64,000 nt of DNA from contig CAYJVT010000002.1 of NCBI GenBank assembly GCA_964373695.1, positions 1,020-65,019 of the forward strand, written 5' to 3'. Positions 4,944 through 5,513 of this stretch are shown here, piece by piece. Both the position numbers and the translations under genes were made by a program. The notes below the pieces were generated by a model, which saw only the letters and a list, made by a program, of their open reading frames with translations, was not told the origin of the DNA and searched no databases. Numbering within the stretch: the stretch's first letter is position 1; each line of letters opens with the position of its first letter. This DNA is from an uncultured archaeon (GTDB lineage Archaea > Aenigmatarchaeota > Aenigmatarchaeia > GW2011-AR5).

Positions 4944-4970
4944 CTTTTATCTATTTATTGTTAATCAATA

Positions 4971-5000
4971 GTTTTATATAGTTTTATATAGTTTTATATA
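4971..5000. repeat. 3 x 10-bp tandem repeat (GTTTTATATA), TATA-like
   Basis: Perfect tandem triplication directly upstream of the antitoxin ATG at 5013. Confidence 0.9.
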
Positions 5001-5012
5001 ACTATTATAGAT

Positions 5013-5204
5013 ATGGCAAAAACATCAATTCAGATAGAAAGCAGGACAAGAGACAGGCTCAAAGGCGTGGGAACAATGGAAGATACTTATGATTCACTTA
5101 TTGAAAGGCTTGTCAAGTTCTACGAAGAGGCTGTGAGCAATAATTATTTTGTGGAAACACAGCATAGGATAGCCAAGTCAGGCAGATTTGTGGGGCTGGA
5201 CTGA
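5013..5204 (+). CDS. Ribbon-helix-helix (CopG-like) antitoxin
   Basis: 63 aa. N-terminal beta-strand/helix pattern TSIQIESRTRDRLK is typical of RHH. Its stop overlaps the start of the downstream toxin. Confidence 0.65.
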   Translation: MAKTSIQIESRTRDRLKGVGTMEDTYDSLIERLVKFYEEAVSNNYFVETQHRIAKSGRFVGLD

Positions 5205-5488
5205 TGTGGAAAGTCCTTATTGAAAAGGGCGCTGTGGAGTATCTTGAATCCCTTGACCGACGCAGAATGAAAAACATAAAGGAATCGTTGCGCCTTCTGA
5301 AAGAATCTCCTTATCCATGCCAAGGAGCGGGCGACAAAAAAGAAATCAAAGGAACTTCGAAGAGCGCTTTCCGCATCCGGATCGGCGATTATAGGGCATT
5401 CTATGTCATAGAAGAAGGTGAAAAAACAGTGAAAATCACCGAAATAATGACGGCAGAAGCTGCACACAAGAAATACGGACAGCTATAA
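5204..5488 (+). CDS. RelE/ParE-family toxin
   Basis: 94 aa. C-terminal FRIRIGDYRAFYVIEE...VKITEI matches the RelE/ParE core. Genetically coupled to the upstream RHH gene. Confidence 0.7.
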   Translation: MWKVLIEKGAVEYLESLDRRRMKNIKESLRLLKESPYPCQGAGDKKEIKGTSKSAFRIRIGDYRAFYVIEEGEKTVKITEIMTAEAAHKKYGQL

Positions 5489-5495
5489 GCCAGGT

Positions 5496-5513
5496 TGCCG
5501 CCGGCGCTTTTAT
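5496..5513 (+). repeat. Direct repeat of tRNA 3' end (att-like)
   Basis: 18/18 identity with 4933–4950. Confidence 0.8.

Follow-up and report, generated by a model that had tools for sequence, protein, structure and literature searches.

A 543-bp cassette carrying a predicted type II toxin–antitoxin (TA) operon was found in an uncultured archaeon of the Aenigmatarchaeota, where it is inserted precisely at the 3' end of tRNA-Ser(CGA), in the gap that separates this gene from a neighbouring tRNA-Ser gene. The whole stretch of DNA that was analysed, 64,000 nucleotides long, is referred to as the window. The insertion is real but fairly ordinary: it belongs to a known kind, the att-flanked integrated cassette without its own integrase. 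As to how it came there, we lean, with a confidence only somewhat better than even, towards recurrent site-specific recombination at tRNA-Ser(CGA), in which a putative recombinase encoded elsewhere would integrate the cassette and presumably also excise it.

The region around the cassette is ordinary chromosome. Genes for TtuA and ThiS (minus strand) are followed by tRNA-Ser(CGA), the TA cassette, tRNA-Ser(UGA), a gene for a small mechanosensitive-channel (MS-channel) protein and tRNA-Gly. The closest relatives of the neighbouring TtuA-like gene belong to two metagenome-assembled genomes (MAGs) of Candidatus Aenigmatarchaeota, namely L001 (JACPAH010000005.1, 85% identity) and L002 (JACPJX010000019.1, 76%), and the named homologues of the toxin were also found in Aenigmatarchaeota (DPANN). 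The identity between the window and L001 is a mosaic with breakpoints at tRNA genes, which indicates that homologous exchange is active here. The spacer that precedes tRNA-Ser(UGA) varies between lineages: a third relative, L064, has unrelated sequence in its place, and that of L046 is partly similar. The coordinates of all features of the locus are collected in Table 1.

Table 1. Features of the TA cassette and of the two tRNA-Ser genes that flank it (positions in the window).
Feature	Position	Strand	Remarks
tRNA-Ser(CGA) gene, long variable arm, 20-nt non-canonical intron in the anticodon stem	4841..4943	+	Rfam and ARAGORN
Direct repeat copy 1, attL-like	4933..4952	+	completes a functional tRNA-Ser(CGA)
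Unique part of the insertion, complete TA cassette, 543 bp	4953..5495	+	absent from L001, L002 and L064
Palindrome ATTG-N5-CAAT, candidate antitoxin operator	4957..4969	+	directly upstream of the TATA region
10-bp tandem repeat forming three TATA-like boxes in phase (-39, -29 and -19 relative to the ATG)	4968..5000	+	TRF
Antitoxin gene, 63 aa, Pfam DUF7557, RHH-type fold	5013..5204	+	
Toxin gene, 94 aa, RelE/ParE superfamily, closest to archaeal aRelE	5204..5488	+	Pfam, PDB, PHROG
Direct repeat copy 2, attR-like, displaced original tRNA end and trailer	5496..5515	+	7 nt past the toxin stop codon
Native 3' trailer and spacer of tRNA-Ser(CGA), TTTGCATCCAATATCTATAGTGAA	5516..5539	+	24/24 identical to L064; homologous to TTTTCATTTAATATCTATCTGT of L001
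Lineage-variable spacer before tRNA-Ser(UGA)	5540..5629	+	outside the TA insertion; absent from L001 and L002
tRNA-Ser(UGA) gene, two introns (D-loop and variable arm)	5630..5853	+	ARAGORN tRNA-Ser(tga) once both introns are removed

Neither of the two tRNA-Ser genes was found with default ARAGORN and Rfam at gathering thresholds. In E-value mode, the Rfam tRNA model matched at 4841-4943 with 38.7 bits (gathering score 29), and ARAGORN returned tRNA-Ser(CGA) after removal of the 20-nt intron, located at about 4872-4891 and followed by the anticodon CGA at 4895-4897. The orthologous anticodon arm of L001 is devoid of the intron and reads CCAGT CTCGAAA ACTGG. Within the second gene, Rfam gave a partial tRNA match at 5779-5853. 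A Phe identity, proposed for both genes by ARAGORN with long introns, was a miscall that was corrected by the use of Rfam in E-value mode and manual removal of the introns, the exact boundaries of which are ambiguous by a few nucleotides. Tools of this kind easily miss tRNA-linked features in these genomes because most tRNA genes carry non-canonical introns.

An 18-bp repeat, TGCCGCCGGCGCTTTTAT, had been described in the preliminary description at the tRNA 3' end (4933-4950) and again at 5496-5513, with nothing between the two copies except the overlapping antitoxin and toxin genes and a 10-bp repeat in three copies. Both positions were confirmed, and the intervening 543 bp hold no more than a promoter region and the two overlapping reading frames. 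The exact direct repeat amounts to 20 bp (TGCCGCCGGCGCTTTTATCT, 4933-4952 and 5496-5515) and extends to 22 matches out of 23, so that the insertion, counted with one copy of the repeat, measures 563 bp (543 unique bp and 20). Each copy is composed of the last 3 nt of the T-stem, the 7-nt acceptor strand and the discriminator (11 nt of tRNA) and of 9 nt of 3' trailer. The cassette hence has on either side a direct repeat containing the tRNA 3' end, while the tRNA itself is left intact, as in att-flanked tRNA elements.

The repeat is short and its source is a metagenome assembly, and one may ask whether it is a chance match or an assembly artefact next to TA genes that are ordinary chromosomal neighbours of the tRNA. 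In 100 dinucleotide-preserving shuffles of the window, two matches to the repeat were never obtained, even when up to three mismatches were tolerated. Two independent read sets gave assemblies (L065 and L066) that agree with the window at 100% identity from the inside of the tandem repeat through copy 2 into the next tRNA, which excludes an assembly artefact at the right-hand junction. Among the source samples, ERR4904390 and ERR4904391 contain identical contigs. Moreover, other MAGs share the arrangement with repeats of their own, and copy 2 continues into a native trailer that is known from the empty sites of three other assemblies. The comparison with these empty sites effectively refutes the explanation by chance or artefact, to which we give next to no credence.

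Insertion at the tRNA 3' end, as proposed initially, was verified by the orthologous site, which is empty in three relatives (L001, L002 and L064), and by the native trailer into which copy 2 of the window continues. The tRNA-Ser(CGA) end of L001 and L002 is followed by a T-rich spacer of about 31-34 nt and then directly by tRNA-Ser(UGA). L064 was retrieved from metagenomes with a 20-mer scan, five of the six matches of which were unrelated GC-rich bacterial sequences. It reads ...GGTTCAAATCC / TGCCGCCGGCGCTTTTATCT / TTTGCATCCAATATCTATAGTGAA, and the 24 nt past its repeat are those found past copy 2 in the window. By this 24/24 identity, copy 2 is recognised as the tRNA end that was there originally, with its native trailer still attached. 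Junctions were compared by direct reading; a whole-region MAFFT alignment came out scattered. The empty (attB) junction is GGTTCAAATCC TGCCGCCGGCGCTTTTATCT TTTGCATCCAATATC, or GGTTCAAATCC-TGCCGCCGGCGCTTTTATCT-TTTGCATCC in another rendering, and the junction predicted for a circular form of the cassette (attP) would be CAGCTATAAGCCAGGT TGCCGCCGGCGCTTTTATCT ATTTATTGTTAATCAATAG, also given as CTATAAGCCAGGT-repeat-ATTTATTGTTAATC.

Several other identities were considered for the ends of the insertion and rejected. No inverted repeat pairing both insertion ends was found. A transposon, insertion sequence or MITE was dismissed on the lack of terminal inverted repeats and on flanking repeats that measure 13-20 bp or 103 nt or are missing, depending on the locus, instead of having a fixed length. 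The idea that copy 2 belongs to a structured RNA, or gives the mRNA a tRNA-like 3' end, was dropped because the folds are no better than those of shuffled sequences (z = 0.44, -0.72 and -0.24). The 3' half of a split tRNA was rejected as well, as only 14 nt of tRNA sequence are present there. A primer-binding site of a retroelement was also discarded, the repeat being of the same sense, not complementary, and without CCA. Finally, a presumed scar of the cassette in the trailer of the empty site of L002 turned out to be a likeness in T-richness only.

The assignment of the toxin to the RelE/ParE superfamily was tested against profile models and holds, with a Pfam ParE_toxin (PF05016) score of 28.8 bits for a cut-off of 23. 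A match to PHROG 1213 ('RelE-like toxin') was obtained at 3.5e-13, and the NCBIfam model RelE_StbE remained below its threshold (18.5 vs 27.9). The best solved homologue is aRelE of Pyrococcus horikoshii (PDB 1WMI_A, E = 6.8e-6), aligned with residues 2-86 of the 94 residues of the toxin. The motifs RIRIGDYRAFY and AEAAHKKY are invariant, and the latter, at the C-terminus, suggests a RelE/YoeB-type nuclease rather than a ParE-type gyrase poison. The two observations that had been named in advance as contradicting the preliminary description were related genomes that all carry the arrangement, with neither empty sites nor the repeat, and a toxin failing the RelE/ParE models; what was found are empty sites and repeats in relatives, and a toxin that passes.

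The antitoxin of the window, taken alone, matches DUF7557 only. Its N-terminal strand-helix-helix fold resembles that of solved ribbon-helix-helix (RHH) proteins, and a profile built from 69 DUF7557 relatives gave a marginal match to the RHH region of MazE7 (E = 0.004). Of these 69 relatives, 22 have a match to Pfam VAPB_antitox as well, and matches to MatP_C, ParG and BrnA occur in single members. A comparison with CopG and RelB using hhalign gave nothing, and no similarity to the sequences of solved antitoxins was detectable apart from the marginal one to MazE7. Identity of the antitoxin to the RHH antitoxins MazE7 (6A6X), KacA (5ZGN) and the CopG/Arc/MetJ-family antidote (5CEG) lies at 5-23%; in contrast to these, its family stands in Pfam only as DUF7557, and its DNA binding is a prediction. 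The label 'RHH–RelE/ParE' can thus be kept, its RHH half being derived from the fold and the marginal profile link.

The ATG of the toxin gene and the stop codon of the antitoxin gene share one base (TGATG), and the order of antitoxin then toxin is identical in eight loci. With the aRelE–aRelB system of P. horikoshii (1WMI) the cassette shares homology over the full length of the toxin, the R-x-R-x-GDYR-x-x-Y core and the overlapping antitoxin-toxin order. It differs in its antitoxin, which is a DUF7557 protein of RHH fold, whereas aRelB is, to our knowledge, not an RHH protein. In function, the cassette is predicted to be a RelBE-type type II TA module. The dN/dS ratios, 0.03-0.11 for the toxin and 0.03-0.17 for both genes together, reveal strong purifying selection and show that the module is maintained and not decaying. 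PADLOC gave no hit on the cassette, and a scan of viral contigs with the toxin gave no relative, no viral or plasmid contig carrying one, so that no link of the cassette to a known virus or to a catalogued defence system is apparent.

Upstream of the genes, the 10-bp tandem repeat reported at the outset was recovered by TRF as 3.3 copies of ATAGTTTTAT with 100% matches. It does not represent a separate feature. A TTATATA box is present at -28/-29 from the antitoxin ATG in all eight cassettes compared, and the palindrome ATTG-N5-CAAT, which occurs a single time in the window, is located at -56 there and at -45/-46 in L046, L047, L054 and L057. The window consequently has gained exactly one additional 10-bp unit between palindrome and ATG, a lineage-specific expansion of the cassette's own TATA region. 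The palindrome beside the TATA box is an obvious candidate operator for an RHH repressor, and the distance of the TATA box from the ATG (-29) would imply an mRNA that is leaderless or nearly so.

Homologous cassettes number about 70. For 11 homologous toxins, which show 66-90% identity, the genomic neighbourhood was examined. The unit that recurs is minimal, with the operator/TATA region and the two genes, and ends 0-10 nt from the stop codon in at least seven genomic contexts. In L046, L047 and L053 the cassette resides in the same ThiS/tRNA-Ser/MS-channel locus as in the window, and in L058 that locus is rearranged, with a remnant of copy 2 kept. The filled tRNA-Ser(CGA) site shows a 19-bp exact repeat in L047 (TCCTGCCGCCGGCGCTCAC) and a 13-bp exact repeat (16/17 matches) in L053. 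In L057 the cassette lies 8 nt past a tRNA-Arg(TCG) gene, i.e. at a second tRNA 3' end. Further copies are found between CobW and archease (L052 and L067), next to TFIIB (L054), next to ThrRS (L068), next to FEN1 (L070-L072) and in L073.

Not all of these copies fit site-specific recombination. The cassette of L046 has no copy 2, and around the non-tRNA copies of L052/L067, L068, L070 and L073 neither att-like sequences nor flanking repeats were detected; both observations count against this mechanism. In L054, the cassette is placed between direct repeats of 103 nt which are 98% identical and not tRNA-derived, and a fixed att core leaves these unexplained.

The absence of an integrase from the insert, which had been stated initially, was corroborated, as promoter and two small genes take up the 543 bp completely. 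No integrase or transposase Pfam match is on record within 2.5-3 kb of the cassette at any locus, and a scan of 20 open reading frames of the window (226-419 aa) gave no integrase Pfam match, five of them being without any Pfam match. The view that the cassette is the remnant of a larger element is not supported by this comparison: the minimal unit recurs in at least seven contexts, never beside a gene with an integrase Pfam match and with no other element genes. A self-contained cassette without its own integrase is thus favoured over the last piece of a decayed island.

Three kinds of known elements come close to this arrangement. Cis-mobilizable elements (CIMEs) are decayed ICEs or IMEs of bacteria which kept attL and attR and lost the genes for integration and transfer (PMC5704250). 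Like them, the cassette retains both flanking sites as direct repeats including a tRNA 3' end and has no integrase or transfer genes; unlike them, it is archaeal and only 543 bp long, and no trace of a larger parent ICE or IME from which it might have decayed was seen in about 12 loci. The pdif modules of Acinetobacter plasmids, among them the 768-bp 'add dif' that contains nothing but a TA pair, are bounded by inversely oriented XerC/XerD sites (PMC6449649). The cassette resembles 'add dif' in carrying only a TA pair between short recombination sites, with no recombinase of its own and a mover thought to be encoded elsewhere, but its sites are formed by the 3' end of a chromosomal tRNA gene, repeated in direct orientation. 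Archaeal elements that target tRNA genes with SSV-type or pTN3-type integrases are at least several kb in size and encode the integrase, the gene of which is often split by integration (PMC7253208). The tRNA 3' target, the restored tRNA and the displaced partial tRNA end as second att site are common to these elements and the cassette, whereas the insert contains neither an integrase nor fragments of one.

The distribution of filled and empty sites was further compared with the divergence of cassettes and hosts, for which the host phylogeny was drawn from two or three flanking genes on MAG contigs. In the host genes, the window groups with L001 and L046 with L002, and L047, L053, L057 and L058 are more distant. 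By this grouping, every filled genome of the inner clade has an empty sister. Between the window and L046, dS reaches 0.6-1.0 in the cassette and 1.0-2.3 in the flanking genes; towards L047 and L053, the dS of the cassette is at least 1.6 and saturated. The divergence of the cassette thus roughly tracks that of the host, which fits long residence and vertical inheritance and counts against site-specific recombination.

A single ancestral insertion that was inherited vertically has accordingly to be weighed as a serious, if clearly less probable, explanation. The empty sites of L001, L002 and L064 would then be the products of independent and precise deletions between the repeats, by recombination or slippage, and copy 2 would be kept by selection, for instance as a terminator or insulator between the TA operon and tRNA-Ser(UGA). 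Five lineages have the cassette in the same ThiS/tRNA-Ser/MS-channel locus, its tree and divergence roughly follow the host (window and L046 closest, then L047, then L053/L058), and the left junction is homologous in the window and L046. The position of L001 and L002, each as sister to a filled genome, agrees with recent losses. The cassette moreover ends at the stop codon without a terminator of its own, and copy 2 offers a T-run.

It is the state of the repeats that vertical inheritance accounts for poorly. They are perfect within a genome (20/20 in the window, 19/19 in L047) and comprise lineage-specific trailer sequence (CTTTTATCT in the window, CTCAC in L047). Under neutral decay, about 9-15 changes are expected since the split of the window and L046 in the 29 tRNA-unconstrained positions of the repeat pair of the window, and none was seen. 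Perfect repeats despite the synonymous divergence of the cassette indicate that the duplication, or its renewal, is recent in each lineage. In copy 2, TGCCGCCGGCG is kept exactly in four lineages whose surrounding spacers are unalignable; a terminator role covers the T-run but not the exact conservation of this sequence in lineages with saturated dS. Moreover, the junction architecture differs among the window/L046 pair, L047 and L053, and the mRNA 3' end has no significant RNA structure (z values above). This leaves three possibilities: cycles of integration and excision that renew the duplication within each lineage, selection acting on copy 2, or homogenisation of the copies.

Recurrent site-specific recombination, the preferred reading, meets a difficulty in the 9 nt of trailer inside the repeat of the window. 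They are common to L001 and L064, and a foreign attP is not expected to carry such a trailer. Both repeat copies consist wholly of native, lineage-specific sequence, trailer included, as would result from insertion without any integrase. Such an insertion could come about when a staggered break is repaired, through template switching, or when circular DNA is captured through homology or microhomology. Each of these would duplicate the native target over a variable length, and repeat length does vary, with 13-20 bp at tRNA-Ser and 103 nt in L054, where the site is not a tRNA. The failure to find an integrase near any cassette and the active homologous exchange apparent from the mosaic identity of window and L001 point in the same direction. 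On the other hand, several lineages whose junctions differ have the insertion at the same few nucleotides of the same tRNA, and L057 has it at a second tRNA (Arg), a specificity that is typical of site-specific recombinases. Taken together, insertion of this integrase-free kind is judged to be quite improbable.

A second insertion in the window bears on this question. Directly after tRNA-Gly, a 57-nt element is located at 6790-6846, followed by a second copy of the tRNA 3' end (17-20-nt duplication, 18/20 matches). L001 possesses neither the element nor the duplicate, and a segment of 2 kb in the window thus holds two insertions that are missing from this sister genome, both with a duplication of some 20 nt from the end of a tRNA. 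The two mismatches between the tRNA-Gly copies are reciprocal: the copy on the tRNA side is native on the left and foreign on the right, and the distal copy is the reverse. This is exactly what a single crossover between attP and attB predicts, and it fits such a crossover better than a fill-in duplication. Relatives of the 57-nt element sit in other tRNA genes as non-canonical introns. The tRNA-end duplications might be the footprints of an uncharacterised and still active system of Aenigmatarchaeota that places small integrase-less cargo, here the TA cassette and the 57-nt element, at the T-loop or 3' end of tRNA genes, a speculative idea that we hold to be unlikely. If true, a single process in DPANN archaea would account both for mobile elements becoming integrated and for tRNA genes acquiring introns.

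In the preferred scheme, the tRNA end (attB) would most likely undergo conservative site-specific recombination with its counterpart on a circularised cassette, catalysed by a recombinase that would be supplied from elsewhere in the genome or by a visiting element. The reverse reaction would leave clean empty sites such as those of the relatives. Once integrated, the operon would probably yield a leaderless mRNA, with the TATA box at -29 serving as promoter, be repressed by its own antitoxin bound to the ATTG-N5-CAAT palindrome, and be terminated at the T-run of copy 2. Upon loss of the antitoxin, the toxin is expected, from its homology to RelE, to cut mRNA on the ribosome, by which loss of the cassette would be penalised.

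The movement of chromosomal TA modules is rarely visible. Here, a TA operon is present as a clean presence/absence allele with defined junctions, and the locus yields the exact attL, attR and attB sequences as well as that predicted for attP. A candidate operator and promoter are also obtained for DUF7557, a family linked here to RHH antitoxins. What distinguishes the cassette is that it is of minimal size, resides in a DPANN archaeon and recurs at one tRNA, in a lineage for which mobile elements are almost unknown.

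The segment 6770-6866 of the window consists, in this order, of the end of the tRNA-Gly(GCC) gene, a 57-nt element and a repeated tRNA end. A comparison of the window with L001, its sister genome, revealed that the native trailer follows immediately after the tRNA in the latter. Because the L001 tRNA runs straight into this trailer, the tRNA-Gly site carries a second insertion in the window, which covers 77 bp and duplicates about 20 nt of the tRNA end. The two mismatches between the copies of the tRNA end are placed reciprocally, which is the pattern expected after one attP x attB crossover.

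Various tRNA genes contain, as a non-canonical intron in the T-loop or the D-loop, copies of one conserved element (CCAATCCCTTTCTTGTAAGAAAGGTCTTGGTGAACCCCAAAGAAC; about 50 nt), and one of its window copies lies outside any tRNA. Between L046, a relative harbouring the toxin–antitoxin (TA) cassette at tRNA-Ser(CGA), and the window, the element is 96% identical over 49 nt (L046 2125-2173 versus window 6790-6838), while the synonymous divergence of the two hosts is about 1. The copies appear to represent a family of tRNA introns that is mobile.

Non-canonical introns, one or two per gene, are present in many tRNA genes of the window genome, where they occupy the anticodon stem, the D-loop or the variable arm. 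The intron-bearing tRNAs of the window were missed or mislabelled by ARAGORN and Rfam at default thresholds. Intron positions vary in the same tRNA among close relatives, as is the case for tRNA-Ser(CGA) among the window, L001, L046, L047 (a further cassette-bearing relative) and L002 (a relative with an empty site).

Coordinates of repeats, elements and tRNA genes
Feature	Location	Remark
tRNA-Gly(GCC) gene	window 6696-6787	
57-nt element after tRNA-Gly(GCC)	window 6790-6846	
Second copy of tRNA-Gly 3' end	window 6847-6866	18/20 identical to 6770-6789
~50-nt element	window 6790-6838 and 44650-44700	
~50-nt element	L046 2116-2173 and 3013-3070	
~50-nt element	L002, between 5160 and 5640	three copies
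Intron-bearing tRNA genes	window 4841-4943, 5630-5853, 44634-44791, about 44872-45011, 27209-27368	
12-nt inverted repeat in spacer	window 5571-5582 and 5617-5628	
103-nt direct repeat	L054 2597-2699 and 3321-3423	98% identical

On contig L054 the TA cassette is located at a non-tRNA locus adjoining TFIIB, between copies of a 103-nt direct repeat which contains two hairpins and starts with TTTATTGCAAT, similar to the half-sites of the candidate cassette operator. Antitoxin and toxin genes do not overlap here and are separated by 63 nt. In L058 the toxin gene is followed, after 66 nt, by a remnant of the tRNA-Ser(CGA) 3' end (ACTGCCGCCGGCGCTTTTTCTC, 1340-1365), and no tRNA-Ser gene was found immediately upstream of the cassette on this contig.

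Elsewhere in the window (20671-24945), four successive ORFs of 289-419 aa share lipoprotein-like N-termini (MK...AAGC/SGC). A Pfam scan of two of them (20671-21729, 23686-24945) gave no match. The four appear to be tandem members of one family, whose proteins would be secreted or exposed at the surface.

Upstream of tRNA-Ser(UGA), a hypervariable spacer of roughly 90 nt (window 5540-5629) has no counterpart in L001 and L002, gives way to an unrelated sequence in the empty-site metagenome locus L064 and is only partially similar in L046.

Identity between the window and L001 is mosaic overall. High identity is confined to the stretch between tRNA-Ser(UGA) and tRNA-Gly, with 94.8% at the nucleotide level and a dS of 0.10 for window 5762-6789, versus 82-88% and a dS of 0.5-1.07 on both flanks. 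This mosaic pattern points to homologous exchange in the recent past, the breakpoints of which lie at tRNA genes.
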